Shown here piece after piece: positions 822 through 50,177 of a stretch of DNA of 52,220 nt. The first letter of the stretch is position 1, and each line of letters opens with the position of its first letter. The notes below the pieces were generated by a model that was not told the origin of the DNA, made no database searches, and was given only the letters and a program-made list of their open reading frames with translations. Source of the DNA: a virus; IMG/VR virus record IMGVR_UViG_3300045988_100671, one strand, 5' to 3'. The translations under genes and the position numbers were made by a program.

Positions 822-1274
822 GTGCCTATGGCAAATAGGCAGGGCGAGCTCACCATCATCACCAAAGCAAAAGACCTGGTAAATCATACCCTCAAGCTGA
901 CGAACAATGCGAACCTGTTTCCGAAAAAGGTGCGCTTCACGCTCTGCCAGCGTATGCAGAACATCACCCTTCAAATTCTCCATGACATCATAGCCGCGAA
1001 CGAAATCTACCCACAGACCGCGGCTGAATGGAAGCGGCGGCTCGACCTTCAAAGGGAGGTATTGACCGGCTGCAAGATGTTCCTGACGTTTCTGGACATA
1101 GCCCTTGAGCAGGGATATGTGGACATCCGGCGGTGTGAGTATTGGACGGGGCTCACCACCGACGTTAAGAACCTGGCAGCGTCGTGGAGAAAGAAGGACG
1201 TCGAGAGGTGCAAGCAGCAGACCCAGGGCGTCCAGAATGGACAGCCCAGGGGGCAGCAGCCCTACCGGCGATGA
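822..1274 (+). CDS. avd: DGR accessory variability determinant (Avd-like four-helix-bundle protein)
   Basis: RBS aaaggagg upstream of the ATG. A 150-aa helical basic protein immediately upstream of TR and RT, resembling the Avd / 23S-rRNA-IVS protein family. Confidence 0.8.
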   Translation: MPMANRQGELTIITKAKDLVNHTLKLTNNANLFPKKVRFTLCQRMQNITLQILHDIIAANEIYPQTAAEWKRRLDLQREVLTGCKMFLTFLDIALEQGYVDIRRCEYWTGLTTDVKNLAASWRKKDVERCKQQTQGVQNGQPRGQQPYRR

Positions 1275-1326
1275 TTCGAGCCCAGGGGTGCGCTTTGTAC
1301 GTGCATCCGCCCCGGTGTGCCTTGGT

Positions 1327-1432
1327 CGGTCCCCGAACTCGTCGAACGCGAACAACGTGCGCTACGTGAACTCGGACGGGAGCCTCAACAACAACAACGC
1401 GTACAACGGCAACAGGGGCGTGCGCCCGGCTT
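1327..1432 (+). repeat. DGR template repeat (TR)
   Basis: 106 bp align without gaps to 3301-3406, and the 3' 77 bp align to 23201-23277. Rich in AAC codons, about 27 adenines by my count. All mismatches to both VRs fall on TR adenines. Confidence 0.95.
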
Positions 1433-1598
1433 CGGTGGAAACTGCGATTGAGTAGCCTGTATGGGCGAAAACAGAAGCCTACCATCAAAGGAAGGTGCTT
1501 CCCGCCCCAGCCTGACAGGGCGGGGGCAAACACATAGCGTTGACGCCCGGCGGCTCGCACAGTGGAGCCACTTGGCTATCAGCAACGGAGGTCCCCTT

Positions 1599-2750
1599 TT
1601 GAAACCAAATCAATCTTTTGAATCCGTTTATGACTTCTCGAATCTGTATGCAGCGTATCGGGCCGCCCGAAAGGGAAAGCGATGGAAAAGTACCGTCGCA
1701 AAGGTGGAGGCCAATGCGCTGGAGGCTGTTGCATATCTCCAAAAAGAGCTCCGGGACGGAACCTACCGCCCCGGAGCTTACTATGAGTTTTTCGTCTATG
1801 AGCCGAAGAAAAGGCTCATCCAAACGAATAGCATCAAGGACAAGATCGTGCAGCACGCCTTCTGTGACCAGGTTCTGTACCCGGTCCTCTCCAGGCCCTT
1901 TATCCTGGACAACTATGGTTCCCAGGTTGGGAAGGGCACCCATTTCGGCCTTGACCGGCTCCGTGACTTCATGCGGGAGTATTACCGCCGCCATGGGAGC
2001 GCGGACGGATGGGTGCTAAAGGCCGACGTCCATCATTATTTCGCCAGCATCCGCCACGACATCCTCAAGCAGGACGTTGCCGAGCTGCTGACGGACCCGC
2101 GCTGTCTCGCGCTGTCCACCGCAATCATAGACAGCACGCCGGGTGGCGTCGGAATACCTATAGGAAACCAAAGCTCGCAAATCTATGCGCTGCTGTATCT
2201 CAACAAGTTAGACCACTTCGTCAAAGAAGTCCTGCGGATAAGGTATTACGGCCGGTACATGGACGATTTCTACCTCATCCACGAGGACAAGGCCGTTCTC
2301 AAGGAGGCCTGGGCCCGCATTGAGGAACACCTCTCAGCCAGAGGCCTCCAGCTCAACGGCAAAACCAACATCTTCCCGCTGCGGAACGGCCTGGACTTCC
2401 TGGGCTTTCATAGCTACCTTACCGACACAGGAAAGGTCATCAGGAAGGTCCGCCGTTCCAGCAGGGAGAGAATGAAGCGAAAGCTCCGCAAGTTCTCTGT
2501 CATGTATGCGGCCGGGGCCATCAGTAAGGAGGAGATCACGGCCAGCTACCAAAGCTGGAGGTCTCACGCTATGCACGGCCAGTGTAGGTCCTTGGTCGAA
2601 AAGTATGACAGGATCTTTGAGCAAATATTTACCCAAAGGAGTGATAAGCAAAATGTCGCAGAAAATCAGCGCTCTGCCGGTGGGGGCCAAGGTCAGAGAC
2701 ACGAAGACCAAATACTACGGCGTCCCCATCCCGTTCCAGATCGGCGATAA
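1599..2750 (+). CDS. DGR reverse transcriptase
   Basis: RT motifs include IGNQSSQ (DGR-RT hallmark), YGRYMDDF (YMDD) and LDFLGF. The best start is TTG 1599, with GGAGG at 1587-1591. The track ORF opens at ATG 1461 without an RBS. The 3' end overlaps the target gene by 98 nt. Confidence 0.93.
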   Translation: MKPNQSFESVYDFSNLYAAYRAARKGKRWKSTVAKVEANALEAVAYLQKELRDGTYRPGAYYEFFVYEPKKRLIQTNSIKDKIVQHAFCDQVLYPVLSRPFILDNYGSQVGKGTHFGLDRLRDFMREYYRRHGSADGWVLKADVHHYFASIRHDILKQDVAELLTDPRCLALSTAIIDSTPGGVGIPIGNQSSQIYALLYLNKLDHFVKEVLRIRYYGRYMDDFYLIHEDKAVLKEAWARIEEHLSARGLQLNGKTNIFPLRNGLDFLGFHSYLTDTGKVIRKVRRSSRERMKRKLRKFSVMYAAGAISKEEITASYQSWRSHAMHGQCRSLVEKYDRIFEQIFTQRSDKQNVAENQRSAGGGQGQRHEDQILRRPHPVPDRR

Positions 2751-4353
2751 GAACCACGCCGGGTACCCGAGCAACAGCACCACCCTTGTGGTTGAGAAGA
2801 TCATCAAGCTGTGCTGCTTCGATGCTACGGAGAGCGGCGGCAACAATGACCGACGGAACTACGGAAACAACCGCATGGTCCTGGCAAATATCCGCCAGTG
2901 GCTCAATAAGAGTGGAACCGGCTGGTATCAGGCGCAGCACAGCTACGACCGCCCGCCCTCCAACGCTTATGTCTGGAGTAACTACAATGAGTACGACGGC
3001 GAGGCGGGCTTCCTCACCGGCTTCGGCCCGGAGATGCTGGCAGCCCTGCTCACCACCACCCTGACCGTCGCAAAGCCTACCGTGGACGGCGGAGGCTCCG
3101 AGACCTTCCAGGACAAGGTATTCCTTCTGTCCATGGCGGAGGTCGGCCTCGGCTCCGAGAACGGCATCAGCGAGGGTTCCAAGCTGGCCCTGTTCAGTGA
3201 CAACAACAGCCGCAAGGCATACCCTACGACCCAGGCCGTCAGCAACAGCGAGTACACCAGCAGCTCGTTGAGTGCTTCGCAGCCGTGGTACTGGTGGCTT
3301 CGGTCCCCGGGCTCGTCGAACGCGTACTACGTGCGCTACGTGTACTCGGACGGGAGCCTCAACTACAACCGCGCGTACTACGGCAACAGGGGCGTGCGCC
3401 CGGCTTTGAATCTGTCCTCTGACATCTTGGTATCTGATTCTCCGGACAGCGAAGGCTACTACACGATCATCTGGAATAACAACCCCAACACCCCTCCGTC
3501 CATCACCGTTCCCGAGACGGTGCGGAGCGGGAAAAATCTGACCGTGACCTGGGCGGCGTCCGTTGACCCGGATGGCGACGCCGTGAGCTACGAGCTGGAG
3601 CGCCAGTACAACGGAGGCGGCTGGAGCAACGTGTATAGCGGGAGCGCTACCACCTTCACCGATACCGGAATCACCGGCAGCATGAACACCGTGGCCTACC
3701 GTGTGCGGGCCAAGGATAGCAAGGCAGCATACAGCGCCTACACCACGAGCCCGACCAGAACGGTTACGCACAATGTAGACCCGACGATCAGCGGCACCAA
3801 CCAGAACCTCGGCACGGTCACGAGCCCCCCGAGTTACCAGTATAGCGTCGGAGACAGTGACACCGGTGACACGCTGGAGATCGTGGAGAGCCTGGACGGC
3901 GTCGAGGTCCGCACCATCCAGAACGCGGTGCGCGGGCAGCCCTACACCTTCGCCCTCACGGCGGCGCAGTTCACCGCCCTCACCGGACAGCACACCATGT
4001 CCATCAAGGTCACGGACAGCGCTGGTAACAGCGCGACCCGGACGATCACGTTCACCCGCACTATCTCCCGGATTGACTTCGACTGGAAGATCGACGACAC
4101 CTCTGCTGCCGCCGAAAAAATCCTCGTCTCCATGCGGTACAACGCCCACGAGGACGGTGTGGTCCTCCAGGTGTGCAACAACTACAACGACGCTTCCCCC
4201 GCGTGGGAGACGGCGACGGTAGGTCTCAAGCATATGTTCTCCAACCAGAGCAAGACTGCGGATAGCTGGGCCGTCGGCGTTCGCGTCACCATCGAGAAGA
4301 CCAGCGGATGGGACGCCATTTCGTGCTACTCCCTGTCCGCCAGCTACATCTAA
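2653..4353 (+). CDS. DGR target protein 1: N-terminal lectin-like variable domain (VR1) followed by FN3/Ig-like domains; probable receptor-binding tail protein
   Basis: ATG 2653 with aaaggag upstream. Contains VR1 (aa about 216-252 of 566). The scaffold VFLLSMAEV...WYWWLRSP...GVRPAL is typical of DGR variable proteins. FN3-like PPSITVPETVRSGKNLTVTWAAS...YRVRAKD lies downstream. Confidence 0.85.
   Translation: MSQKISALPVGAKVRDTKTKYYGVPIPFQIGDKNHAGYPSNSTTLVVEKIIKLCCFDATESGGNNDRRNYGNNRMVLANIRQWLNKSGTGWYQAQHSYDRPPSNAYVWSNYNEYDGEAGFLTGFGPEMLAALLTTTLTVAKPTVDGGGSETFQDKVFLLSMAEVGLGSENGISEGSKLALFSDNNSRKAYPTTQAVSNSEYTSSSLSASQPWYWWLRSPGSSNAYYVRYVYSDGSLNYNRAYYGNRGVRPALNLSSDILVSDSPDSEGYYTIIWNNNPNTPPSITVPETVRSGKNLTVTWAASVDPDGDAVSYELERQYNGGGWSNVYSGSATTFTDTGITGSMNTVAYRVRAKDSKAAYSAYTTSPTRTVTHNVDPTISGTNQNLGTVTSPPSYQYSVGDSDTGDTLEIVESLDGVEVRTIQNAVRGQPYTFALTAAQFTALTGQHTMSIKVTDSAGNSATRTITFTRTISRIDFDWKIDDTSAAAEKILVSMRYNAHEDGVVLQVCNNYNDASPAWETATVGLKHMFSNQSKTADSWAVGVRVTIEKTSGWDAISCYSLSASYI
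3301..3406 (+). repeat. DGR variable repeat 1 (VR1)
   Basis: 9 mismatches to the TR over 106 bp, all at TR adenines. The 3' GC-rich stretch aggggcgtgcgcccggctt is identical (IMH-like). Homology ends at ctt|tga versus TR ctt|cgg. Confidence 0.95.
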
Positions 4354-5884: not shown

Positions 5885-6250
5885 ATGTACGACATCACCC
5901 CCATCATCGAGGCCGCCGGTCTCCTGTTCGCCACCGTCATCACCTGCGTCCTGGTCCCCTACATCAAGAGCAAGACCACGTCCGAGCAGCAGAAGGAAAT
6001 CAATGCGTGGGTCAAGATCGCCGTCTCTGCTGCCGAGCAGATTTTCAACGGCAGCGGCCGTGGAGAGGAGAAGAAGGCCTATGTCATCGCCTGGCTCAAG
6101 GAGCACGGCGTCAAGGTCGATGAGACGGAGCTTGACGCTCTGATCGAGGCCGCAGTCTATGAGCTGAACCAGGGCATCATCCCGATCGAAGGCGTCACCA
6201 TCGAAACCACTACCGAAGTCGAAAGAGAGGAGCAGACGGACCATGAGTAA
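5885..6250 (+). CDS. Holin, LL-H family-like
   Basis: RBS aaaggagg. N-terminal TM helix, then KIAVSAAEQ...KKAYVIAWLKEHG...LIEAAVYELN, typical of LL-H holins. Overlaps the endolysin start. Confidence 0.7.
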   Translation: MYDITPIIEAAGLLFATVITCVLVPYIKSKTTSEQQKEINAWVKIAVSAAEQIFNGSGRGEEKKAYVIAWLKEHGVKVDETELDALIEAAVYELNQGIIPIEGVTIETTTEVEREEQTDHE

Positions 6251-7265
6251 CAGCAGCCTTGTCAGCTATACGCAGATCAGCCCCAACAAGAGCAGCCCCC
6301 GGAAGTATGCCATTACCCGGGTGACCATCCATTGTGTTGTAGGACAGGTGACCGTCCAGAGCCTCGGCGGCGTGTTCGCTCCGAGCTCCAGACAGGCCAG
6401 CAGCAACTATGGTATCGGCAAGGATGGCAAGGTCGGTATGTACGTCGAGGAGAAGGACCGTTCCTGGTGCAGCTCCAACGCCGACAACGACAACCGCGCC
6501 GTCACCATCGAGGTGGCGTCTGATACCTACGCCCCCTACAAGGTGACCAATGCGGCCTATTCCGCCCTTCTGGACCTGGTCACGGACATCTGCCGCCGGA
6601 ACGGGAAGACCAAGATCCTCTGGTTCGGCGACAAGAACAAGACCCTGGCCTATCAGCCGAAGTCCAACGAGATGGTGATGACCGTTCACCGCTGGTTCGC
6701 CAATAAGAGCTGCCCGGGCGATTACCTCTACAACCTGCATGATGAGATCGCGGCGGAGGTCAACAAGCGCCTGTCTGGCGGAGGCTCCTCCGCCAGCACG
6801 CCCAGCACCGGCGGCAGCACCGGCGGCCAGACGGCCGTAAACTACACTGTCCAGGTGACGGCATCTGACCTCAACATCCGCACCGGCCCCGGGACCAACT
6901 ACGGAAGTAAGGGCTTCATCAAGCCCGGCGTCTATACCATCGTGGCCGAGGCCAGCGGCACCGGCGCCTCCAAGTGGGGCAAGCTCAAGAGCGGAGCTGG
7001 CTGGATTTCCCTGGACTACGTCAAGAAGACCGGGAGCGCCGGAACGGCGTCCAGCTCCATCAAGGTGGGCAGCACCGTCACGATCAAGAGCGGCGCCGTG
7101 TATGGCGGCCTCACCACCTCCAGAGGCGCAAAGGTCCCGAGCTACATCTCTGGGACGTCCCGCCGCTACACTGTCAGCCAGATCGCCGAGCACAAGGGCG
7201 TCCAGGAGGCGCTTCTCAAGGAGATCACTTCCTGGGTTGCGCTGTCCTATCTGAATCTGGTATAA
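6243..7265 (+). CDS. Endolysin: N-acetylmuramoyl-L-alanine amidase (Amidase_2/PGRP-like) with SH3-type wall-binding repeats
   Basis: NYGIGKDGKVGMYVEEKDRSWCSSNADNDNRAVTIEVA amidase core. SH3-like LNIRTGPGTNYGSKGFIKPGVYTIV...WGKLKSGAGWISLDYV. Confidence 0.85.
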   Translation: MSNSSLVSYTQISPNKSSPRKYAITRVTIHCVVGQVTVQSLGGVFAPSSRQASSNYGIGKDGKVGMYVEEKDRSWCSSNADNDNRAVTIEVASDTYAPYKVTNAAYSALLDLVTDICRRNGKTKILWFGDKNKTLAYQPKSNEMVMTVHRWFANKSCPGDYLYNLHDEIAAEVNKRLSGGGSSASTPSTGGSTGGQTAVNYTVQVTASDLNIRTGPGTNYGSKGFIKPGVYTIVAEASGTGASKWGKLKSGAGWISLDYVKKTGSAGTASSSIKVGSTVTIKSGAVYGGLTTSRGAKVPSYISGTSRRYTVSQIAEHKGVQEALLKEITSWVALSYLNLV

Positions 7266-7502: not shown

Positions 7503-7528
7503 GTGGCATTACCGTGGCATTACGGCAT
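7503..7528 (+). repeat. Tandem 11-bp repeat doublet gtggcattacc/gtggcattacg (candidate integrase arm site)
   Basis: gtggcattaccgtggcattacggcat. Overlaps the integrase stop codon (7520-7522). Confidence 0.7.
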
Positions 7529-8572
7529 CAAATCATCGAGTTTTTTGACCGCTTCCGGCACCGTGGAGGGGTATAGATGGCCGTATGTTCGGAGGGTGGT
7601 TTGGACGTCCTCATGGCCCAGGCGCTCGCTCACAAGTAGGACCGGGCAGCCCAGGTGGATGAGGAGCGAGGCGTGGGAGTGCCGGAGATCGTGGAGCCGG
7701 ATGCGCTCCACCCCGGCGGCCTCCGCTGCCTTCAACATCTCCCGGCGGAAGTAATGCTTCGTGAATGGGAACAGCCGGTCATCCGGTCCGACGTCGTAGA
7801 GCGCTGCCATGTACTCCCGCAGCTCTGCCGCCAGCTTCGAGGGCACCGGAACCACCCGGCGGCTCTTTGGCGTCTTCGGCTCCGTGATGACCTCCTCGCC
7901 GTCGATGCTCTGGAAGGACTTCGAGACGGACAGCGTCCCGGCGTCCAGGTCCAGGTCCCTCGGCGTGAGGGCCAGCAGCTCGCCTATCCGCAGGCCGGTC
8001 CAGAACAGCACCGACAGCCCGGTCCGGGCCGGGAGCTTGCGGACCTTCTCATGGACGGCCGTGAACTGCTCGACGGTCCAGAAGTTCATCTCGTCCGCGT
8101 TTTTCTTCCCGACGCCACCGGCCAGGCGGGCCGGATTGACTTGGAGGCCGTAGTAGCGGACGGCGTAGTTGAAGATGGCGCTGATCTGATTGTTGATGGT
8201 CTTGATGTAGGTTGGGGCCAGACCTTCGGCCAGAAGGTCGGACTGCCACTTGCGGACGTGCGCCGGGGTAATCTCGTTGAGCGGCAGTTCCCGGAAGAAC
8301 GGCAGGATCTTCGCATCCACCAGGTACCGCTTGTTCTTGAGAGTGTTCGCCTTGAGGCGGCCCTTCATGTCGTCGAAGTATATCTCGACCATGGACCCGA
8401 AGGCCATGTCGCAGCTCCGGGCCTTCGTTCGGAGAAATTCCTCCTCGAAGGCCTTTGCGTCCTTCTGGCGCAGGAAGCCCCGCTTCTTCTTGAGGCGGCG
8501 GCGCCCCTGCCAGTCCGTGTAGTAAAACGATGCGTACCAGGTGCCCCGTTCCTTGTCTTTGTAGGTGGGCAT
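7520..8572 (-). CDS. int: Tyrosine recombinase / phage integrase
   Basis: Start MPTYKDKERGTWY with RBS gggagg (the track ORF extends 44 codons further upstream). Arm-binding-type N-terminus. C-terminal catalytic region RIRLHDLRHSHASLL...GHEDVQTTLRTYGHLY. Confidence 0.92.
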   Translation of the reverse strand: MPTYKDKERGTWYASFYYTDWQGRRRLKKKRGFLRQKDAKAFEEEFLRTKARSCDMAFGSMVEIYFDDMKGRLKANTLKNKRYLVDAKILPFFRELPLNEITPAHVRKWQSDLLAEGLAPTYIKTINNQISAIFNYAVRYYGLQVNPARLAGGVGKKNADEMNFWTVEQFTAVHEKVRKLPARTGLSVLFWTGLRIGELLALTPRDLDLDAGTLSVSKSFQSIDGEEVITEPKTPKSRRVVPVPSKLAAELREYMAALYDVGPDDRLFPFTKHYFRREMLKAAEAAGVERIRLHDLRHSHASLLIHLGCPVLLVSERLGHEDVQTTLRTYGHLYPSTVPEAVKKLDDLMP

Positions 8573-8576
8573 TTGG

Positions 8577-9050
8577 CTATTCCTCCCTCTCTGGAGGGCG
8601 GTCCCGATTGAAGACGTCCTCCGCCCATTGGTGGAAGACCTGATAACCGGGCAGCTCTGGCGAACCTTCTTCCGGTACATCCGGGAGGGTACATCCAGAG
8701 CCATATTTGGTCCTATGTGCCGGGATTGTGATTAGGCATAAAGGGGGCCGGTGGTTCTTCCTAACGTGGTCAATGTAAAATTTCGCATCCGACAGAGATA
8801 GGCACTTGCCGGAAACTTTGGAGCATAGCTCGCACGGCTCTACGCCAGCAGCCGGAACAAATCGGACTGTCCCGACATCGTAATCTCCCCACCGTTCCAT
8901 TGGAACCTTCATCAACTCATCGAACGACAACGGCTTTCTTTGCTGGTATGTATCTTGCATTTCTTTGATTTTTCCAGACAGCTCACTGTCGTTCATTTCG
9001 TTCAGGTCCTTCCCGAGGATAGAACGCAGAATCTTTTTCATTTCCAGCAA
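8577..9050 (-). CDS. Hypothetical protein (lower-GC gene in lysogeny module)
   Basis: ORF 8577-9092. The likely start is TTG 9050, 8 nt after gggag; ATG 9041 is an alternative. No recognisable domain. The 5' two-thirds is visibly AT-richer than the genome. Confidence 0.55.
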   Translation of the reverse strand: MLEMKKILRSILGKDLNEMNDSELSGKIKEMQDTYQQRKPLSFDELMKVPMERWGDYDVGTVRFVPAAGVEPCELCSKVSGKCLSLSDAKFYIDHVRKNHRPPLCLITIPAHRTKYGSGCTLPDVPEEGSPELPGYQVFHQWAEDVFNRDRPPEREE

Positions 9051-9431: not shown

Positions 9432-9525
9432 CTCATTCGCTCCTCTCTCGCGCGCGCGTGCGCGTAGTCACCATGAACATAATAGTTTATATAATACGTT
9501 TATAAGAATACACGTTTATATTATG

Positions 9526-9543
9526 TGGTCAAAAATTAACCGG
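9526..9543 (+). repeat. 18-bp direct repeat tggtcaaaaattaaccgg (iteron-like)
   Basis: Repeated 17/18 at 9585-9602. ACCGGT-type cores also lie at 9539-9544 and 9566-9571. Confidence 0.7.
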
Positions 9544-9584
9544 TAAATATTCCGGTCTATTTTTAACCGGTATTTTCTTCTTTC

Positions 9585-9602
9585 TGGTCAAAAATCAACC
9601 GG
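9585..9602 (+). repeat. 18-bp direct repeat tggtcaaaaatcaaccgg (iteron-like)
   Basis: Partner of 9526-9543, with 59-bp spacing. Confidence 0.7.
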
Positions 9603-9623
9603 AAAGAAAACCGCTTAGATTTC

Positions 9624-16528: not shown

Positions 16529-16665
16529 CGGTAATTGAGTTTGCAGCCAAACGGCTGGAAGAAGAAAGCGGATACGACACTGACGCTGTCCGCTACTGGG
16601 CCGCCTACCTGGACGGGGCCAGGGCGCAGAAGAAAGAGGACGAGGAGGCGAAGGTCAATGATTAA
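16525..16665 (+). CDS. Small hypothetical protein (46 aa, not in ORF track)
   Basis: ATG 16525 overlaps the upstream stop and its TAA overlaps ATG 16658. Product MTVIEFAAKRLEEESGYDTDAVRYWAAYLDGARAQKKEDEEAKVND. Confidence 0.45.
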   Translation: MTVIEFAAKRLEEESGYDTDAVRYWAAYLDGARAQKKEDEEAKVND

Positions 16666-19600
16666 GATTCTGCATACCGGAGACATTCACCTCGGGGACC
16701 TGGCCGGTCCCACCAAGGACGGCCAGAACCTTCGCAGGGAAGACACCATCAGGTGTATGCGGGAGGTCTACTACCGGGCCTTCCTGGAGGAACCCGATGT
16801 GACCATCATCGCGGGAGACCTGTTCAACCGGTCCCGCGTCTGGGCGGACACCGCCCTGGAGGACGTCAACGACGCCCTGGAGCAGTTCATCATCCCGCTG
16901 TGCAAGTGCAGCGACGCCGTGGTGCTGCTGTTTGGCACCATGAACCACGACAACCCCAGGGCCTTCGAGCTCATCAAGAGAGCCACCCAGGACCTCAAGA
17001 ACCTGCATATCTACACGGAGCCGAAGGTGGAGGAGATCACCACCAGCAGCGGACCGGTCCAGATCGTAGCGGTCCCCGGCTTCGACAAGGCCCGCCTCCG
17101 CCTGTTCTGCCCCGGGGTGGACAAGGAGACGGAGAACCGGAACGCTACGGCGCTTATCAACGACATCATGCTGGGCCTGTCCACGGAGCTGGACAAGTCG
17201 AAGCCGTCCGTCCTGGTGGCTCACTACACGGTCAGCGGAAGCGAGGCGGACAACGGCTCCACCTTCCTGGCGGGCCAGGACGTCGTAGTGCTTCCGGCTA
17301 CCATCGACGCCATGGGTGTGGACCTCGCCTGCTTCGGGCACATCCACAAGCCGCAGCGGCTTGTGTGTCAGACACCGGCCTTCTATTGTGGTTCTGTCAA
17401 TCAGCTCACCTTCAACGACGAGGGGACGGAGCACGGCTTTTACATTCACACTATCGACGGGCAGGTCTCCAGCGAGTTCGCTGTGACGCCGGAGCGGAAG
17501 CACTTCACCCTGCGCCTGTCGCCGGAGGACGTCTCCGCCTTCATCACCGGCGGAGTGGCGCCGACGCCGGACGGGATCTCTGATGCCGTTGTTCGGGTCC
17601 GGTATTCCTGTACCGCCGAACAGGACAAGGCCTTCAACCGGGCAGAGCTCCAAAAGTACCTGATGCAGGCTGGAGCCTTCTACGTCGCCGAGGTTATGCC
17701 GGAGGACGTGGAGGAGCTGGACGCCAAGGACCAGCTCACGGAGCACGATGGACCGGCCGAGTGTCTGGCCCGCTGGCTGGAGACCAACGGCGTGGAGCCG
17801 GACAAGGCCGCCAGACTTGAGGAGTTGGCCGCTCCGATCATCAAGCAGGCGGACGACGGGCGCGGAGACAGCAAGCATACCGGAGCGTTTTTCCCGCGCT
17901 CCATCGAGGTCAAGAACTACCGCAGCTACACGGCAGCGACCTTCGACTTCGAGCCGGTTCACATGGCGATGGTCAACGGCCCGAACGGCGTAGGTAAGTC
18001 CAGTCTGTTCATGGACGCCCTGGCCGATTGCCTGTACGAGCAGACCCGCAAGGAGGACATCGGCGGATGGGTCCGGGACGGCACCAAGAGCGGCAGCATC
18101 ACCTTCACCTTCGGCCTGGGCGGCCAGGACTACCGGGTCATCCGCACCAGAACCAAGAGCGGGCGAGGAACCCTGGCGCTCCAGCGCTGGGACGCGGACG
18201 GCCAGGCCTGGGCCGATGAAAGCGACACCACCATGAAGCTCACCCAGGCCCGCATCGAGCGGCTTCTCGGAATGGACTGCACGACCTTCTGCTCCATCGC
18301 ACTTATCCGGCAGGACGCCTACGGGCTTTTCCTGGAAGCCGGAAGCGATCAGCGCATGGCCGTTCTGTCTGCCCTCCTGGGCCTGGACATCTACGGCCGG
18401 ATGGAGGACCTGGCGAAGGCCGGGGCCACGGAGCAGCGCCGGAAGCTGGCGGCCATCCGGGAGCGCAGCGCCATCCTCGATGAGACTATCCAGCAGAAGG
18501 CGGGCATCGAGAGCGAAGACGCCGAGCTTGCCGATCAGGTGGCCGACGTCGAGAAGTTCGTCAAGGACCTGGAGGCGGACCTCCGTGAGGCAGAGGCGGC
18601 CGAGGCCCTACGCAAGGAGATCGCCCGGCAGGCCGAGGAGAAGAAGCGGCAGGCCCAGGAGTACCGCCTCCAGGCGGCCGACAAGGCCTCCGAATACCTG
18701 GACCTGGAGAAGAAGCACTCCGAGGCAGAGGCGGCCGCTGACGGCCTGGAGGATGCAGCCAGGGCAGCGGATAAGGTCAAGGCGGCCAGGGAGATCATGC
18801 AGCAGCACGCCCCTGATGTCGAGAGGGACAAGGACCTGGTCAAGGACCGGGCCCGCGCCACAAGTGACCTGGCGACCTCTGATGAGAAGGCGCAGCACCT
18901 TGCGAGTGAAAAGGCCCGCAACGAGGCCATCCTCTCCAAGAAGGATGAAATCGTTCGTGCGAAGAACGAACTGGCGGAGATCGTCACCAAGAAGGAGACG
19001 ATTCGCCAGCGCCTCGCAGAGCTGGAGAAGGCTACCGCAGCATATCAGGAGGCAAAGGCGGCCTGTGATAGATACCTCCAGGAGGCCAAGTCGGACATCC
19101 GGGCCTGCGAGGCTGAAATCCAGCGGGCGACCGATGAAACCGCGAGACTGGATGACAGCGGGTGCCTGGTGCCGGACACCGCGACCTGCAAGTTCCTGGC
19201 CTCTGCTGTGGAATCCAAGCGAGCGCTACCCGGAATGATGGAGGAGCTTGAGACCAAGAAGGCGAAGTACCGCGAGCGCTATGATGAGCTCAAGGCGGCC
19301 GTCGATCAGGCAAAGGCCGCCATTGATGAGATCGGAGACCCCCTCGGCGCTTTGGAAGACCTGGAGTACAAGGAGCGGCGCCTCCGTTCCATCGCCTCGA
19401 AGGAGGCGGACATCGCGGTTGCGGAAGCTACCCTGGAGAAAATCGAGGCGTCCGTCCTGGAAGTGAAACAGACCTTCGATGCAGCGGCGGCCCGCATCGA
19501 CGAGATCGACGCTGAGCGCGTGAAGCTCGCCCAGGCCGTTACCGCCTACCAGGAGGCCGAGGGAGACGTGAAGGCCTTTTCCGTTTTGGCTGATACTCTG

Positions 19601-20437
19601 GCGGAGTGTCAGGCGGCCGCAGCGAAGGCCGAGGCCCTGGAGCCGCAGATCAGGAAGCTCAAGGCGGAAGTGGAGGAGCTGCGCGGCAAGTCCGAGCAGG
19701 CACTTCGAGAGGCCGACGAGATCGCCGCCCGCGTGCCGGGAGGTGGGAACGTGGCAGACCGCATCCGCGCCAACATCGAAGCGCAGCGACGGTCCCTCAC
19801 CGACCTGGCAACCCGCCGGGGACAGCTCAAGGCAAAGCTGGAGGACATCGCAGAGGCGGAGACCAAGTCCTCGGAGCTCCGCCGGGAGGCGGAAGCCGTC
19901 GGCGTGGTCTTGAGCGACTACACCACCCTGGCCCAGGCATTTGGCCTGGACGGCATCCAGTACATGATCGTGCGCGGCGTCGTGCCGGAGATCATGCGCC
20001 GGTCCAATGAAATTCTGGCAGCCATGACCGGCGGCCGTATGGCGGTGGACATCCGAACCGAGCGGGAGCAGAAGTCCACGAAGCAGATCGTGAACAGCCT
20101 GGAGGTGTGGATTAACACCATCACGGGAGGCAACAGACCCTACCTCTCCCACAGCGGAGGCGAGAAGGTCAAGATCGCGCTGGCTGTCACCCTGGGCCTG
20201 GCTGACGTGAAAGCTCGCCGGGCGGGGGTGCAGCTTGGGATGCTGTTCATCGACGAGCCCCCCTTCCTGGACGCCGACGGAACCGAGGCCTACGCCGACG
20301 CCCTGGCCGCCATGGCCTCCAGAAACCCCAATATGAGAATCCTTGCTATCTCGCACGACCCGACCATGAAGGCCCGGTTTGTGCAGAACATCGTGGTAAC
20401 CGGCGGAGAGGACGGGAGCACAGTCACGATGGAATAA
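16658..20437 (+). CDS. Fused SbcD/Mre11-like nuclease and SbcC/Rad50-like ATPase
   Basis: ATG 16658 after gaggagg. Phosphoesterase motifs ILHTGDIHLG, GDLFN, GTMNHD, GHIHKP. Walker A GPNGVGKSS. Long coiled coil. Signature LSHSGGEKV and Walker B MLFIDEP. Confidence 0.88.
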   Translation: MIKILHTGDIHLGDLAGPTKDGQNLRREDTIRCMREVYYRAFLEEPDVTIIAGDLFNRSRVWADTALEDVNDALEQFIIPLCKCSDAVVLLFGTMNHDNPRAFELIKRATQDLKNLHIYTEPKVEEITTSSGPVQIVAVPGFDKARLRLFCPGVDKETENRNATALINDIMLGLSTELDKSKPSVLVAHYTVSGSEADNGSTFLAGQDVVVLPATIDAMGVDLACFGHIHKPQRLVCQTPAFYCGSVNQLTFNDEGTEHGFYIHTIDGQVSSEFAVTPERKHFTLRLSPEDVSAFITGGVAPTPDGISDAVVRVRYSCTAEQDKAFNRAELQKYLMQAGAFYVAEVMPEDVEELDAKDQLTEHDGPAECLARWLETNGVEPDKAARLEELAAPIIKQADDGRGDSKHTGAFFPRSIEVKNYRSYTAATFDFEPVHMAMVNGPNGVGKSSLFMDALADCLYEQTRKEDIGGWVRDGTKSGSITFTFGLGGQDYRVIRTRTKSGRGTLALQRWDADGQAWADESDTTMKLTQARIERLLGMDCTTFCSIALIRQDAYGLFLEAGSDQRMAVLSALLGLDIYGRMEDLAKAGATEQRRKLAAIRERSAILDETIQQKAGIESEDAELADQVADVEKFVKDLEADLREAEAAEALRKEIARQAEEKKRQAQEYRLQAADKASEYLDLEKKHSEAEAAADGLEDAARAADKVKAAREIMQQHAPDVERDKDLVKDRARATSDLATSDEKAQHLASEKARNEAILSKKDEIVRAKNELAEIVTKKETIRQRLAELEKATAAYQEAKAACDRYLQEAKSDIRACEAEIQRATDETARLDDSGCLVPDTATCKFLASAVESKRALPGMMEELETKKAKYRERYDELKAAVDQAKAAIDEIGDPLGALEDLEYKERRLRSIASKEADIAVAEATLEKIEASVLEVKQTFDAAAARIDEIDAERVKLAQAVTAYQEAEGDVKAFSVLADTLAECQAAAAKAEALEPQIRKLKAEVEELRGKSEQALREADEIAARVPGGGNVADRIRANIEAQRRSLTDLATRRGQLKAKLEDIAEAETKSSELRREAEAVGVVLSDYTTLAQAFGLDGIQYMIVRGVVPEIMRRSNEILAAMTGGRMAVDIRTEREQKSTKQIVNSLEVWINTITGGNRPYLSHSGGEKVKIALAVTLGLADVKARRAGVQLGMLFIDEPPFLDADGTEAYADALAAMASRNPNMRILAISHDPTMKARFVQNIVVTGGEDGSTVTME

Positions 20438-20485
20438 CGCCGGACATCCAGCGCCGGAAGTCTAAACGAAGGGAGGGACTGCCGG

Positions 20486-21202
20486 TTGAACTACATCTTG
20501 GAGATAAATGCCTTTGAACGGCGGATGAAACGGCAGCCCCTCCCAACCACGGCGCAGCTCCTATGGTACAAGCTCATGGCCTTTGCAAATCGGCAACACT
20601 GGCCGGAGTGGTTCTCGATTGACAACGACCGGCTCGGCGGGCTTCTGAATAGCACCGCCGGAACGGCCAGAACCGCCAGAGACCAGCTTGTGAAAGAGGG
20701 ATATATCATCTGCCAAAGAGGAGCAAAAGGAAGGCCGAACAGGTACAAGCTGGTGTCCATCGCCTTCCAGGAGTACCCGGACGCCGCCGGAAGCAGCGAC
20801 GTGTACCCGGCCAATGATAGGCCAGGCATCGAAGGCTATCTGGAGGACGACTACACCAGGTACTTCGGCTACACGGAGGCGATCGGGAGCGAGGTCAAGA
20901 GCGTAACACAAGAGCTGCTTGATACGTTCCGGCCGGGAGAGAGGGCGACCCAGAGGGACGAACTCGAAGTGTTCCGCAAGATCACAGATCAGGAGGGAAC
21001 CGGGCCGGAAGACACGGTCATGACGGTATCGGAGGAGAAAAAGGCCCTCCTGGTCTATGCTTTTGAGCAGGCCAGCCTTGCAGGCGCGGTGAACTGGAGA
21101 TACATAAATGCCATATACCGCAACTTTGGGGCTCGAAATATCAAGACTGTGGATGACGCCTACGACTATGACTATGACAGGGATTACCGGATGGGCCGGT
21201 AA
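20486..21202 (+). CDS. Replication protein with DnaD-like domain (replisome organiser)
   Basis: TTG start after gggaggg. N-terminal winged-helix-like region. C-terminal AGAVNWRYINAIYRNFGARNIKTVDD resembles the DnaD/DnaB_2 domain. Confidence 0.65.
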   Translation: MNYILEINAFERRMKRQPLPTTAQLLWYKLMAFANRQHWPEWFSIDNDRLGGLLNSTAGTARTARDQLVKEGYIICQRGAKGRPNRYKLVSIAFQEYPDAAGSSDVYPANDRPGIEGYLEDDYTRYFGYTEAIGSEVKSVTQELLDTFRPGERATQRDELEVFRKITDQEGTGPEDTVMTVSEEKKALLVYAFEQASLAGAVNWRYINAIYRNFGARNIKTVDDAYDYDYDRDYRMGR

Positions 21203-22757: not shown

Positions 22758-23639
22758 ATGGAAGTCAAACTGAACGCGCTGCGCCGTGGCGACACCTTCG
22801 CCCTGGCCGGTATCAACTGGAAGGTGCTCAAGGAGCTTGAGCCCGCCCACTCTGGAGCCGCGCAGAACTATTTCTGCGAGGCTGCGGAAGACATCTTCCA
22901 GGCACCCTTCGACGAGAACGGCAACAACAACTGGAATAACGCCAGCCTGCGGGAGCGGCTGAACGGTGACTTCCTGGACGCCCTGGAGAAGGAACACCCC
23001 GGCATCCTGGAGTTCATCGTCCCCACCTACCGCGATCTGACCGCCGATGATGGCCTCAACGACTACGGGGCTTGCCTCGATAAGGTGACCATGCTGACGG
23101 CGGATGAATACCGGGAGACCAGGGACCTTCACCCCGCGCCGGAACACTGGCGCTGGCTCATTACCCCCGATGGTACGCCCGCCAGCTCCGGCACCTCTTT
23201 CGTGCGCTACGTGTACTCGGACGGGAGCCTCGACAGCGACTACGCGTACGACGGCCGCAGGGGCGTGCGCCCGGCTTTGACCCTGAAATCTGACATCTTG
23301 GTATCTGTCGATGACCAGGAAGACCAGACGGAGGAGCCGGAGGAGATGACCCCGGAGCAGCGCGAGATGGCGCTCTATGAGAAGGCTGTCGCCAAGTGGG
23401 GCAAGAGAGCCCAGGCCCTCAAGGCCATCGAGGAGATGAGCGAGCTGTCCCAGGCCATCTTGAAGCTGGTGTTCTGCGAGGACTACGGTATCGGGGATGA
23501 ACAGGCCATCCGCGACAACATCTCCATGGAGCGGGCCGACGTTGAGATCATGCTCAACCAGCTCCACGTCATCTTCGGGGACAACAGCGAGATGGAGTGC
23601 AAGAGACTGGACAACCTGGAAAGCCTTCTGGAGGGATAA
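22758..23639 (+). CDS. DGR target protein 2: lectin-like variable domain (VR2) fused to a MazG-like all-alpha NTP pyrophosphohydrolase domain
   Basis: ATG 22758 after aggagga. Contains VR2 (aa about 147-174 of 293). C-terminal EEMSE-28 aa-ERAD fits the MazG EXXE...EXXD metal-binding pattern. Confidence 0.8.
   Translation: MEVKLNALRRGDTFALAGINWKVLKELEPAHSGAAQNYFCEAAEDIFQAPFDENGNNNWNNASLRERLNGDFLDALEKEHPGILEFIVPTYRDLTADDGLNDYGACLDKVTMLTADEYRETRDLHPAPEHWRWLITPDGTPASSGTSFVRYVYSDGSLDSDYAYDGRRGVRPALTLKSDILVSVDDQEDQTEEPEEMTPEQREMALYEKAVAKWGKRAQALKAIEEMSELSQAILKLVFCEDYGIGDEQAIRDNISMERADVEIMLNQLHVIFGDNSEMECKRLDNLESLLEG
23201..23277 (+). repeat. DGR variable repeat 2 (VR2)
   Basis: 77 bp align to TR 1356-1432 with 8 mismatches, all at TR adenines. 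Counting two further A-to-T positions at 23199-23200 gives 79 bp and 10 mismatches. Same IMH-like 3' end as VR1. Confidence 0.92.
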
Positions 23640-30594: not shown

Positions 30595-32134
30595 GCTGGT
30601 ACCCATTGAATCCGTTCACGCATCGGAGTATAACCCCCGGCGGAACGATGAAAAGCGCCTGGCCTTGACGGAGCTGTCCCTCCGAAAGCTGGGCTTCCTG
30701 CTGCCGATCTACGCGGACCGCAGCGGGGAAATCTTGAGCGGACACCAGAGGCACCTTGTTGCCTCCCGCATGGGCTTCACCCAGATTCCGGTCGAGTATG
30801 TCAGCGGGAAGGACCTGGGAGAGCGGAAGGCTGTGAACGTCTTGTTCAACCGGGCGACCAACGACCTCCAGAAGCAAGACACCTGCGACATCATCCGGCG
30901 CCGTCTCTATGAGATGGACGTGGAAAGCATGGTGGACGGCCTGCCGGACATCACGCCGGACACCGTCGAATCCTTCCCGTGCGTCTTCTGCCTGCACCGG
31001 CGGGACACCGTTCAGCTCGCCAAGGCCAACCACCGGAGCTTTGACACCCACACCCGGCAGCTCGCCAAGAGCCTGGAGCGCCGCATCGGGACGGCAATGC
31101 CCATCGTGATTGGCGCAAGCGAGAACGTCATCAACGGCATCGGCCGCCTCCAGGTGGCAGCGGAGGCCAAGCGGCCCGTGGTCCGGTGTGTGGTCGTCAC
31201 CAAGGAGCAGGAGGCCTTTGCAACGGCCATGCTGAACCTACTGTCCATGGACTTTGACATCGCCTCCTATGCGGACGACCTTCGGTACAACTCGTTCATG
31301 CGGGAGCGGAACACCAGAGAGACCGACGCCGAAGGAAACGCAGCCCTGGGAGACGGCTTCTTCAAGGGCGTGTTCCCGAAGAACCGTGGCCGGGACTTCT
31401 GCAAGCTGGAGGGCGCGGCCCTGGAGGCGTGGCGCCGTCACTATGGCTCCAGCGTCGTGGACTTCGGAGCAGGAAAGCTGAACAACACCCGCACACTGCG
31501 GAAGGCTGGAATCCATGTGGCTGCCTTCGAGCCGTACTTCGTGACCGTGGGCGAGAATATCCACAAGGCCAAGAGCGTGGAGATCGCAGAGAAGTTCCTT
31601 GACGATGTGGAGGCCGGGACGCCCTTCACGTCCGTCTTCATCTCCAGCGTGTTCAACAGCGTTCCGTTTATGGCAGATCGGAAGCAGATCGCGGTGATCG
31701 CCGCCGCCCTGTGTTCGCCCGGAGGCCGGACGGTCTGCTGGTGCCAGAGCAATAAGGCCCCGCAGTTCGTGAACACCAAGAAGAAGTTCCTGGCGGCCGA
31801 GAAGACTTTAACCTTCGACCTGGACTACGAGCCCAACACCATCCTGGGAGACATCGGGAACCACCCGAAGGCCCAGAAGGGGCACACCGAGGAGGAGATG
31901 CGGGAAATCTTCGCCCCGTGCTTCCGCAAGGTTGACCGGCTGGAAATGATTCAAAAATTCTGGTACATGGAGGTGTCGGAGCCCATCGTGGACCCGGAGG
32001 CCCTGGGCGCTGCCCTGGACTTCGAGTTCGAGCTTCCATACCCGGACGGAACCCGAATGGGGCTGTCCGAGCGGGCCCGCAAGGCCTTTGAGCATCGCCT
32101 CGGCGTCTCCATCCCGAGAAAGGAGAGCACATGA
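30587..32134 (+). CDS. ParB-like domain fused to a class I SAM-dependent methyltransferase-fold domain
   Basis: ATG 30587. N-terminal VHASEYNPR...LSGHQRHLVA. C-terminal VVDFGAGKL (motif I), VAAFEPY and FISSVFNSV. No DPPY/N6-N4 motif seen. Confidence 0.75.
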   Translation: MIELVPIESVHASEYNPRRNDEKRLALTELSLRKLGFLLPIYADRSGEILSGHQRHLVASRMGFTQIPVEYVSGKDLGERKAVNVLFNRATNDLQKQDTCDIIRRRLYEMDVESMVDGLPDITPDTVESFPCVFCLHRRDTVQLAKANHRSFDTHTRQLAKSLERRIGTAMPIVIGASENVINGIGRLQVAAEAKRPVVRCVVVTKEQEAFATAMLNLLSMDFDIASYADDLRYNSFMRERNTRETDAEGNAALGDGFFKGVFPKNRGRDFCKLEGAALEAWRRHYGSSVVDFGAGKLNNTRTLRKAGIHVAAFEPYFVTVGENIHKAKSVEIAEKFLDDVEAGTPFTSVFISSVFNSVPFMADRKQIAVIAAALCSPGGRTVCWCQSNKAPQFVNTKKKFLAAEKTLTFDLDYEPNTILGDIGNHPKAQKGHTEEEMREIFAPCFRKVDRLEMIQKFWYMEVSEPIVDPEALGAALDFEFELPYPDGTRMGLSERARKAFEHRLGVSIPRKEST

Positions 32135-32826
32135 GAGACAACACAAATCCTACCGGGGCATGGGAGTTCAACGGCGAGGTTGCTGCCTGCTTCGCAAATA
32201 TGCTGGAGCGCAGCATCCCGGACTACCGATCTATGAGAGCCCTGGTCTATAACGCCGGAGAGCGGTTCGTGAAGCCCGACACCCTCATCGTTGATGTCGG
32301 GTGCTCCACCGGCCTGGCTGTGGAGCCGTTCGTCACCAAGCATCGGGACGAGAATGACTTCCTGCTGATCGACAACGCACCGGCCATGGCGCAGGCCTGC
32401 CGGGAGCGCTTCTGCTCCGAACCTGCTGTTACGGTGAAGGAGGGAAATCTCTGGGAGTTCCTTCCGCTTGAGGACCGGGCGAGCCTGGTTCTTTCTGTAC
32501 TGTCCATGCAGTTCATGCCGACGGCATACCGGCGCTTTATGCTGCGCCAGATCTGCGAGAGCATCGTCGATGGCGGCGCTCTGATCTATGTTGAGAAGGT
32601 TGTGGCCGGGAGCCTGGACGATCTGATGGTGGACCTCTACTACCAGATGAAGCGGGAGAACGGGTACACCAACGAGCAGATCATGGCGAAGCGCCGGAGC
32701 CTTGAGAACGTCCTCTCCCCTCTGGAGCCCGAGTGGAATGAAGCCATGCTCAAGGAGGCGGGCTTCCGGCGGGTACAAATGTTCTGGCGCTGCCTCAATT
32801 TCTGCGGGTGGATTGCCGTGAAATAA
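32131..32826 (+). CDS. cmoA: CmoA-like carboxy-S-adenosyl-L-methionine synthase homologue
   Basis: Matches the E. coli CmoA sequence as I recall it along its full length. Blocks: WEFNGEVAACFANMLERSIPDYRS, VDVGCSTG, IDNAPAMAQACR, GGALIYVEK, KRENGYTNEQIMAKRRSLENV, LKEAGFRRVQMFWRCLNFCGWIAVK. Confidence 0.85.
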   Translation: MRDNTNPTGAWEFNGEVAACFANMLERSIPDYRSMRALVYNAGERFVKPDTLIVDVGCSTGLAVEPFVTKHRDENDFLLIDNAPAMAQACRERFCSEPAVTVKEGNLWEFLPLEDRASLVLSVLSMQFMPTAYRRFMLRQICESIVDGGALIYVEKVVAGSLDDLMVDLYYQMKRENGYTNEQIMAKRRSLENVLSPLEPEWNEAMLKEAGFRRVQMFWRCLNFCGWIAVK

Positions 32827-32850: not shown

Positions 32851-33366
32851 ATGCCGAAACGCAGCGAAACGAAGCCGTGGGAGCGCCAGGACAAGGAGGG
32901 CGAGAAGCCTTTTGAGGCCTTCGTCATCTACCGGGATATGGGCGAGAAGCGCACACTTCAAGCCGTTGCGGACAAGTTGCGGAAAAGTTACACTCTCATA
33001 CGCCGTTGGAAGGACACCTGGGCGTGGGAAGATCGCGTCCGGGCCTACGACAATAACTTGCAGAAGGAGGCCCATGCGGAGGCGGTCAAGAAGGCCCGCA
33101 AGATGGCGGACCGGCATATCGGCATAGCTCTGAAATTGCAGGCCAAGGCCATGGAGGCCCTGGAGAAGATGGACGCGGAGGACATCGACCCGAAGAACCT
33201 GGTCGCCTTCATCAGGGAGGCCACCAAGCTGGAGCGGGAGAACCGCCAGGACATTGTCCAGATGACCGACCCGGACCGTGGAGAGGAAGGCGGTTCCACG
33301 AGCCTTGCTGATGTCATTTCCGAGGCCTGGGAGAGGAGGCGGAAGCAGAATGAAAATGACAGCTGA
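32851..33366 (+). CDS. terS: Terminase small subunit
   Basis: RBS aggagagga. N-terminal HTH-like FEAFVIYRDMGEKRTLQAVADKL. Directly upstream of the large terminase. Confidence 0.75.
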   Translation: MPKRSETKPWERQDKEGEKPFEAFVIYRDMGEKRTLQAVADKLRKSYTLIRRWKDTWAWEDRVRAYDNNLQKEAHAEAVKKARKMADRHIGIALKLQAKAMEALEKMDAEDIDPKNLVAFIREATKLERENRQDIVQMTDPDRGEEGGSTSLADVISEAWERRRKQNENDS

Positions 33367-42000: not shown

Positions 42001-42524
42001 CCTTCACAGAGAAGCGAAACAAGCTGATCGCCGCCCTTCACGCCGCCGTCGGGCGGCCTGTTGTTCTCGCATCGCAGGTTCAGCCGGAGGCAGAAGTCCC
42101 GTTCATCATCTACACGGTTACGACCGACTACATGGCGGACGGAAGCCTTGGGCACTACCTCCAGGGCGACGGTGAAACGGAAGACAGCCTGGTTGTGGTC
42201 CGGGCAGAGCAGCCGACCGCGACCTTTTCATTTACTGCTTGCAGCATCGACAGAACCACGGATAGCGGCACCGTATTTGGAGCGGACGAAGCCCTGGACC
42301 TCGCAAATAGGGCCCAGGGCTTTTTCCTTCATACCGGCCGTGACGCGATGGAGGCGGCTGGCTTTGTGGCCCTTGATGTCTCCAACGCCACCAACCGGGA
42401 CGCCCTGGAGCTCAATGAGATGGGCCGCCGGTACGGCTTCGATGTCCGCCTCCGCTATGTGCGCGAGGACGTTCTTGAGGTTGGTGCTGTCGAGAAGCCG
42501 AACATCATCCAGAAAAAGGAGTGA
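41997..42524 (+). CDS. Tail terminator / completion-like protein
   Basis: Immediately upstream of the sheath gene. 175 aa. Confidence 0.5.
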   Translation: MTFTEKRNKLIAALHAAVGRPVVLASQVQPEAEVPFIIYTVTTDYMADGSLGHYLQGDGETEDSLVVVRAEQPTATFSFTACSIDRTTDSGTVFGADEALDLANRAQGFFLHTGRDAMEAAGFVALDVSNATNRDALELNEMGRRYGFDVRLRYVREDVLEVGAVEKPNIIQKKE

Positions 42525-42529
42525 AAACC

Positions 42530-49805: not shown

Positions 49806-50177
49806 ATGGAAAATTATACACTGAAAATTGACCCCGAAACCCGGGACCTTTGCCTGGATGACGCCGGTGTGCTGGAGCTGGTAGACGGCGACGCCACCAG
49901 CGCCCAGGCTGTCCGGCTCACCCTGGAGGCATGGAAGGGGGAGTTCCCCTTCGACCCTACTCACGGAACCGACTACACCCGCATCGCCGGTAAAAAGGCC
50001 CGCGAGCTCGCAGAGGACGAAGTCCCGGAAGTCATCCGGGACGCAGTCCTCCAGGAGACCACCGTGAGCGAGGTGGACAGCGTGGAGTACAACCTCTCCG
50101 GCAGAAGCCTTGAGGTCTCTGTGACCGGCACCCTCACCACCGGCGGGGTCATCACTACGGAGGTGAGCACTCTATGA
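49806..50177 (+). CDS. Baseplate wedge protein (gpW/gp25-like)
   Basis: 123 aa, directly upstream of baseplate J. Confidence 0.6.
   Translation: MENYTLKIDPETRDLCLDDAGVLELVDGDATSAQAVRLTLEAWKGEFPFDPTHGTDYTRIAGKKARELAEDEVPEVIRDAVLQETTVSEVDSVEYNLSGRSLEVSVTGTLTTGGVITTEVSTL

Follow-up and report, generated by a model that had tools for sequence, protein, structure and literature searches.

A phage-encoded diversity-generating retroelement with one template repeat, two DUF6273 targets and a structured spacer RNA

The viral DNA IMGVR_UViG_3300045988_100671, of 52,220 nucleotides (nt) and called the window below whenever the whole stretch is meant, carries a phage-encoded diversity-generating retroelement (DGR) with one template and two targets; the probability of this reading is put at about 0.93. 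An earlier note on the same DNA had described a complete DGR in the order avd, template repeat (TR), reverse transcriptase (RT) and target gene, and this is borne out by alignment of the repeats, by the family matches of the RT and of the accessory variability determinant (Avd), and by variation among related phages. The cassette was correctly but incompletely described, as the note did not include a remote second variable repeat (VR2) with its own target gene, a structured RNA in the spacer that separates TR and RT gene, or a conserved box on the 3' side of each variable repeat (VR). From sequence comparison, the DGR is complete and very probably active.

The TR (1326-1432, plus strand; 107 nt with 27 adenines and 11 AAC codons) and VR1 (3300-3406, plus strand) align by machine without gaps and are identical at 98 of 107 positions. 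All nine mismatches are at TR adenines (1336, 1337, 1351, 1354, 1369, 1390, 1396, 1397, and 1405), a pattern with a hypergeometric p of 1.3e-6 for nine mismatches and 27 adenines in 107 nt. The adenine-only mismatches and the abundance of AAC codons had been recognized in the earlier note, which placed the repeats correctly but gave them as 106 bp (1327-1432 and 3301-3406), one position short. The mismatches amount to one AAC to GGC, five AAC to TAC, and one AAC to CGC codon change, which together account for the nine bases; the change of gAActc to gGGctc and the single CGC codon had been read as such, but four rather than five TAC codons had been counted. The final 27 nt of the TR and VR1 are identical, where 25 had been reported, and the likeness does break off abruptly past 1432 and 3406. 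This 3' end of the TR, GGGGCGTGCGCCCGGCTT, is GC-rich, contains no adenine, and is present exactly three times in the window (TR, VR1, and VR2), so that by this count there are no additional VRs in the window. A GC-rich, adenine-free 3' end that is identical in TR and VR is like the initiation of mutagenic homing (IMH) sequence of other DGRs.

The TR occupies non-coding DNA between avd and the RT gene, while VR1 encodes residues 217-251 of target 1, at the C-terminal end of a DUF6273 domain; this is within the N-terminal third of the 566-amino acid (aa) protein and not at the C-terminus of the protein. In the frame of VR1, all 27 TR adenines are at codon positions 1 or 2, and therefore stop codons cannot arise. 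By codon analysis, approximately 6.6e15 peptides are reachable for VR1 and approximately 1e11 for VR2. The second target site was found in a repeat search, which returned a third copy of the TR at 23171-23277, although homology to the TR is limited to its 3' 76-77 nt. VR2 is accordingly placed at 23201-23277 (plus strand; homologous to TR 1356-1432), with a 5' boundary that is uncertain by about 3 nt. Over TR 1357-1432, eight of eight VR2 mismatches are on TR adenines; the mismatches at non-adenine positions for which the earlier note proposed a proper alignment are therefore absent from both repeats.

The avd gene (828-1274, plus strand) encodes 148 aa from the ATG at 828, in an open reading frame (ORF) that opens at GTG 822. 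Because GTG 822 falls within a GGAGG ribosome-binding site, the gene most likely begins at ATG 828; the avd gene had been identified earlier at 822-1274, and only its start has changed. Searches with the protein gave PHROG 3206, "Avd protein of DGR", at E 1.1e-33, and two further Avd models were matched over their full length, bAvd of Pfam (E 1.2e-7) and DivGenRetAVD of NCBIfam (E 4.9e-9), so by its sequence a predicted DGR accessory protein is encoded beside the TR. The RT gene (1599-2750, plus strand) encodes 383 aa from a TTG start and has the IGNQSSQ and YMDD motifs, as previously described. The TTG start at 1599 is supported by a GGAGG 7 nt upstream, by an ATG at the same place in relatives, and by an alignment to bRT that begins at residue 8. 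The top match in the Protein Data Bank (PDB) is the bRT of phage BPP-1 (8ub7, E 3.9e-37, residues 8-330), in which IGSLTSQ is aligned with IGNQSSQ and the YMDD is conserved; these are the outcomes of the family searches that had been suggested for the RT and Avd. The RT also matches Pfam RVT_1 (3.7e-15) and PHROG 1423 (2.9e-131). With both I(G/S)xxxSQ and YxDD in its sequence, it is classed as a DGR-type RT. The 3' end of the RT gene and the start of the target 1 gene share 98 nt (2653-2750) in different frames.

Relatives of the DGR were gathered from IMG/VR contigs with the RT and with target 2 as queries. The TR is 100% identical in the window and in three of these contigs (L001, L003, and L004), in which the flanking DNA is 83-99% identical, while VR1 differs in each of the three. 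Between near-identical phages, with RTs that are 98-99% identical, VR1 differs at A sites only. The 13 TR/VR1 pairs taken from related contigs have 168 mismatches, 166 on TR adenines and two at non-A positions, and VR2 varies likewise among relatives L081-L091. Clusters at 90% identity contain 832 distinct sequences of target 1 and 1104 of target 2. When 15 members were sampled per cluster, TR-A codon columns varied in 16 of 16 cases for target 1 (mean 5.2 residues), compared to 54 of 550 other columns (mean 1.10), and in 11 of 12 cases for target 2 (mean 4.8 residues), compared to 15 of 281 other columns (mean 1.06). The polymorphism at TR-A positions for which the earlier note suggested looking is thus present at the level of assembled genomes. 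Hypervariability of the VRs at A sites together with an invariant TR, as seen between these genomes, is the sequence pattern of ongoing retrohoming. One relative has an altered template: the TR of L012 (5707-5813) reads AAC TAC GGC AAC where L010, L011, and L014 have AAC AAC AAC AAC, with the loss of three TR adenines. The GGC is also present in VR1 of L012, and either gene conversion from VR to TR or self-mutagenesis of the template could be responsible.

Two other explanations of the cassette were considered. In one, the repeats are ordinary paralogous or duplicated DUF6273 coding segments with point mutations and the RT is from a retron or group II intron. A homologous domain is indeed common to both targets, and NCBIfam gives partial, far sub-threshold matches of the RT to group II intron, Drt, and retron RT models. 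A non-coding TR between avd and the RT gene does not fit with duplicated coding segments, however, and neutral divergence cannot yield mismatches on TR adenines in 17 of 17 cases in the window and 166 of 168 in relatives; the adenine-only mismatches effectively refute the duplication. The RT match to bRT is also about 28 orders of magnitude better than that to group II RTs, with group II intron and retron-type RTs at 4e-9 or worse, and an Rfam scan gave neither intron RNA domains nor a retron msr/msd match. The chance that this explanation is correct is considered negligible. In the other, the DGR was once active but is now an immobile fossil in this phage, with VR differences that were inherited. 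The window provides a single snapshot of each VR, which would suit a fossil, but the cassette retains an intact RT, Avd, TR, and spacer RNA. The TR is also 100% conserved while the flanks of relatives have diverged by up to 17%, which argues for ongoing selection on the template, and neither the near-identical phages with distinct VR1 sequences and A-site differences only nor the 832 and 1104 distinct sequences within the clusters would be expected of an immobile element. A fossil is considered quite improbable.

Several points do weigh against a DGR with one template and two targets. The Avd scores are under the curated Pfam and NCBIfam cut-offs, the class of the RT is assigned from similarity matches and motifs, and the VR variation on record is that between assembled contigs and between cluster members. 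The spacer RNA is under the Rfam gathering score for the RT-2 motif in the window as well as in relatives, no hairpin or cruciform is predicted 3' of VR1 or VR2, and a consensus scan for promoters and terminators found none on the plus strand, which leaves the cassette without a predicted promoter.

If the DGR operates as others do, a transcript containing the 3' end of avd, the TR, and the structured spacer RNA would be bound by a complex of RT and Avd. The RT would copy the TR into complementary DNA (cDNA) with misincorporation opposite adenines, and by analogy with BPP-1 the cDNA may be primed from within the spacer. The homologous VR would then be replaced by the cDNA, in a direction set by the common GC-rich 3' end and possibly also by the conserved box 3' of each VR. 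Homing to VR1 would diversify the head of a tentaclin-type protein, which is a DUF6273 (C-lectin-like) domain, and homing to VR2 would diversify the same type of domain in a small MazG-like protein of the early region. In both phage proteins it is the binding surface that would be altered.

The 166-nt spacer separating the TR from the RT gene is not a protein-coding leader, and sequence covariation indicates a structured RNA (1433-1597, plus strand), corresponding to the Sp region of DGR RNAs. Nineteen spacers of related DGRs were aligned and folded with RNAalifold, resulting in seven helices, which in the window are at 1434-1438/1479-1483, 1442-1443/1476-1477, 1456-1457/1464-1465, 1490-1492/1500-1502, 1505-1507/1524-1526, 1539-1542/1583-1586, and 1545-1556/1565-1576. 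Compensatory changes are present in 21 of 28 pairs. The cells of the alignment are 95.5% paired, compared to 79% in shuffles, none of 500 of which reached that value, and 29-49% when the partners were slid. A covariance model built from the 19-spacer alignment (R1) has a single match in the window, at 1426-1597 with 157.7 bits, and one match on the strand of the RT at 76 of 80 bacterial-genome loci that were independent of model building; these 80 loci cover Clostridia, Anaerococcus, Coriobacteriaceae, and Treponema. The matches end at, or up to about 150 nt upstream of, the start of the RT match, with a few extending slightly past it. Among the R1 matches, 25 of 28 pairs have compensatory changes, a count that is to be read with the caveat that the alignment was fitted to the model. 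Pairing of the TR 3' end with the spacer (GGCTTC at 1428-1433 with GAAGCC at 1476-1481) was also considered, but was dropped as it is not conserved in relatives.

The spacer also resembles a curated RNA family. Rfam RT-2 (RF03077) matches 1438-1610 over model positions 1-222, the full length of the model, with 29.4 bits where the gathering score is 40. An RT-2-like match upstream of the RT in the relative L120 reaches 35.7 bits and is also under the gathering score, and at the gathering threshold RT-2 was found in none of 12 relatives. Membership of the spacer in the curated RT-2 family is therefore not established. Weinberg et al. 2017 (PMC5737381) placed the RT-10 motif at the BPP-1 spacer and speculated that other RT motifs come from DGRs or retrons; the presence of the spacer RNA at 76 of the 80 loci probably assigns the orphan RT-2-like motif to DGRs. 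In the BPP-1 spacer, Sp 4-30 is bound by Avd and priming is from the 2'-OH of Sp A56 (PMC6182149). An invariant unpaired CAAAGGA at Sp 54-60 (window 1486-1492) is, by analogy, a candidate priming site.

The region 3' of VR1 (3407-3438, plus strand; TGAATCTG...TCTGACATCTTGGTATCTGA) is conserved and is a candidate target-recognition element. It contains a 13-nt post-VR box, ATCTTGGTATCTG, at 3424-3436 (plus strand), and a second copy of the box is beside VR2 at 23295-23307 (plus strand), at an equal distance from the end of the VR. The consensus after both VRs is TGA(A/C)(T/C)CTG-NNN-TCTGACATCTTGGTATCTG, and the window has no exact copies of ATCTTGGTATCTG other than those next to VR1 and VR2. 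Past the GC-rich end, the VR flanks do not resemble the TR side. One further copy with a single mismatch, ATCTGGGTATCTG, is on the minus strand at 49052-49064 with no adjoining VR and is probably due to chance. A hairpin or cruciform of the BPP-1 type 3' of the VRs was rejected, as the 76-nt DNA folds are equivalent to shuffles (z = 0.16 and -0.50); such a hairpin is not universal among DGRs.

The box and the shared 3' flank might be kept only for a beta-strand of the DUF6273 domain (S-D-I-L-V-S) and not as a DNA element acting in cis. The encoded SDILVS or SEILVS motif is conserved across protein alignments, remoter relatives have synonymous changes in the box (CTG or CTT for Leu, TCC for Ser), and no hairpin is predicted there, all of which favor a constraint on the protein. 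In opposition to this, the codons used in the box are rare in a genome of 61% GC (TTG 5.6%, GTA 8%, and TCT 7.9%, for a joint expectation of 3e-4), and the same rare codons are beside VR1, beside VR2, and beside the VRs of DGRs from other genera with RTs that are about 50% identical. The likelihood of a protein-only constraint falls a little short of one half, and the choice between it and a DNA signal has roughly even odds. If it is a DNA signal, the post-VR box would be a candidate target-recognition signal for DGRs that do not have the BPP-1 hairpin.

Target 1 (2653-4353, plus strand; 566 aa) has an N-terminal DUF6273 domain, which is C-type-lectin-like, followed by immunoglobulin (Ig)-like domains. 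Pfam DUF6273 matches residues 41-255 (1e-36), Ig-like matches are at 379-468, and the protein matches PHROG 10993 over its full length (5.4e-231). It is also related to the N-domain of the IgA peptidase 9qa6 (E 5.4e-10). The C-lectin fold of this type of domain is taken from Baykov et al. 2023 (PMC10743442), in which the DGRs of the human-gut phages nd4 and nd12 were reported to diversify "tentaclin", a protein with N-terminal DUF6273/C-lectin and Ig domains and a VR near the 5' end of its gene, as well as another, smaller C-lectin protein. Identity between target 1 and the tentaclin of nd12 is 51% and extends over the full length (residues 1-549). Tentaclins are characterized by an N-terminal DUF6273/C-lectin domain that contains the VR, then Ig-like domains and a C-terminal anchor domain; from its DUF6273 and Ig-like matches and its identity to the nd12 protein, target 1 is assigned to this family. 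Its gene is located after tail-fibre genes and before the lysis cassette. In the 90%-identity cluster of target 1, many members (P0137-P0148) have a length of 521 aa instead of 566 aa, which could be an alternative start call or a variant with a 45-residue deletion. In relatives with RTs that are about 57% identical (L108 at 8452-8860, L109, L110, and L024-L031), tandem 204-nt repeats are found downstream of the DGR target and probably encode Ig-like modules.

Target 2 (22758-23639, plus strand; 293 aa) has an N-terminal DUF6273-type variable domain and a C-terminal, all-alpha MazG-like domain (approximately residues 197-293). Its gene is about 20 kb from the cassette in the early/replication region, between a gene for a DnaD-like helicase loader and a PHROG 2045 gene. 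The N-terminal part matches Pfam DUF6273 (2.8e-10) and PHROG 9958 (2e-67), the variable domain is 42% identical to that of nd12_tgt2, and only DUF6273 structures were matched for it when an AlphaFold2 (AF2) model was searched with Foldseek. The C-terminal 100 or so residues match PHROG 2245, "nucleoside triphosphate pyrophosphohydrolase" (1.8e-16), and are modeled by AF2 as four helices with a predicted local distance difference test score (pLDDT) of 95. Nearly all PDB fold matches of this domain are to DCTPP1, RS21-C6, iMazG, and DR2231, with a probability of 0.9-0.96 and a template modeling (TM) score of 0.55-0.6 but weak E values of 0.2-1; phage nucleoside triphosphate (NTP) pyrophosphohydrolases in BFVD are matched at E 5.5e-6. 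The acidic residues of the EExxE...ExxD signature (EEMSEL...ERADVE), E226, E230, E259, and D262, are invariant in 35 homologues. Pfam gave no match to the C-terminal domain and a PDB sequence search gave nothing convincing; the domain is called MazG-like because of the PHROG match, the fold comparison, and the invariant acidic residues, and pyrophosphohydrolase activity is only putative.

The fusion of target 2 to a MazG-like domain raises the question of whether DGRs also diversify non-structural phage proteins. It has been suggested here that target 2 is an intracellular early protein rather than a receptor-binding protein of the virion, in which a diversified C-lectin-like domain is fused to a MazG-like nucleotide pyrophosphohydrolase; this is a speculative proposal and is considered unlikely. 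Consistent with it are the location among replication and early genes, some 20 kb away from the module with the structural genes and the DGR, the invariant candidate catalytic acids, and the nd12 orthologue of target 2, which has a helical DUF3310 instead of MazG. If it were true, hypermutation would let the phage redirect an enzyme, or a scaffold of oligomeric form, against a host factor that changes, for example part of a defence system, and DGRs would have a use outside of adsorption. When the full text of the literature was searched for DGR and MazG in combination, no paper joining the two was found. In some relatives with RTs that are about 53% identical (L059 at approximately 370-443 and L072 at approximately 2010-2087), a VR2-type repeat with the same post-VR box precedes the TR by at most 6 kb instead of being 20 kb away, so that the second target does not have a fixed position.

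The window begins and ends with an exact 55-nt direct repeat (1-55 and 52166-52220), as in an assembly that closes into a circle, and the unique part of the contig is about 52,165 bp long. The genome has a G+C content of 61% and is that of a temperate phage with a contractile tail, including sheath and baseplate genes. The terminase is at 33278-34783, the tail sheath at 42521-43606, the baseplate at 50174-51352, and tail-fibre genes at 51349-52035 and, spanning the circular junction, at 89-607. The DGR cassette follows the last of the tail-fibre genes and precedes the lysis genes, which comprise a holin (5885-6250) and an ORF with the predicted label of putative amidase endolysin (6243-7265); an ORF at 7520-8704 on the minus strand is labeled by prediction as putative integrase-like. 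Between the tail-fibre gene and avd there is a GC-rich hairpin of GCCCCTGTGAGGGGC and GAGGGGC followed by TTTTTCTC (683-712), which is terminator-like by eye but was not called in the consensus scan. At 9515-9605 there are three direct copies of a unit of about 32 nt with GGTC-AAAAAT-(T/C)AACCGG, spaced by 27 and 32 nt and about 0.8-0.9 kb from the integrase gene, which resemble repressor operators of a lysogeny switch. A single ORF of 1300 aa in the early region (16535-20437) is SbcD-like at residues 41-439 and SbcC-like at residues 298-982, and is apparently a fused nuclease/ATPase. The closest RTs in bacterial genomes are 69-74% identical and are from Clostridia, Oscillospiraceae, and Christensenellaceae metagenome-assembled genomes, and no near-identical prophage was found among GTDB species representatives. 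As the top RT identity is only 74%, the host can be assigned only broadly; from these sequences it would be a gut member of the Clostridia, probably Oscillospirales-like.

Compared to the DGR of BPP-1 (mtd-avd-TR-brt), the window DGR has an RT for which bRT is the closest relative of solved structure, with both IG...SQ and YMDD aligned, and shares Avd, mutagenesis confined to the adenines of an AAC-rich TR, a 3' end that is GC-rich and identical, and a TR-RT spacer of about 140-166 nt. In the window, the TR and the VRs are unlike beyond the GC-rich end, whereas BPP-1 has a partly similar IMH*. One target gene of the window follows the RT gene and the other is some 20 kb off, neither being upstream of avd as in BPP-1; VR1 is internal to its protein and not C-terminal, DUF6273 takes the place of Mtd as the target domain, and the VRs have no predicted 3' hairpin. 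The spacers also differ, with the Rfam motif RT-10 in BPP-1 (PMC5737381) and an RT-2-like motif in the window; the first hairpin and the long-range helix of the Rfam RT-2 RNA are the same as those of the window spacer.

The architecture is closer to that of phages from the gut. In the Faecalibacterium prophages Lelie and CP11, a single DGR serves two DUF6273 proteins, one large and one small, each with a VR (PMC11792537), and as in the window the VR is at the C-terminal end of the DUF6273 domain; however, identity is about 32% over part of the domain and the host lineage is another. Target 2 has weak tblastn similarity to Lelie and Toutatis. Phage nd12 (OR777946.1) shares with the window the series of avd, TR, spacer, RT, and a tentaclin gene that overlaps the RT gene and has its VR within the 5' third, located between tail and lysis genes. 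The nd12 RT (18096-19151) and tentaclin (19136-20875) genes overlap at 19136-19151, akin to the 98-nt overlap in the window, and a distant, small DUF6273 second target (tgt2, 31285-32178) is among early genes. A contractile tail is also common to nd4, nd12, and the window phage. The TR and spacer of nd12 are 77-79% identical to those of the window at the DNA level, with a megablast match to window 1333-1504, and beyond these there is no nucleotide likeness to deposited phages. The window is nonetheless a different phage with a larger genome (52 kb), and the extra domain of target 2 is an N-terminal DUF3310 helical motif in nd12 but a C-terminal MazG-like domain in the window.

As this architecture has already been published for nd4/nd12 and for Lelie/CP11, the window contains a tentaclin-type two-target gut-phage DGR and not a new kind of system. 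The spacer RNA and the post-VR box are not described in the nd4/nd12 paper, the MazG-like fusion of target 2 appears to be undescribed there too, and all three appear to be undescribed in the Lelie/CP11 paper. Although unsurprising as a DGR, that of the window is a clean reference example for tentaclin-type two-target DGRs, which are common in phages of gut Clostridia.

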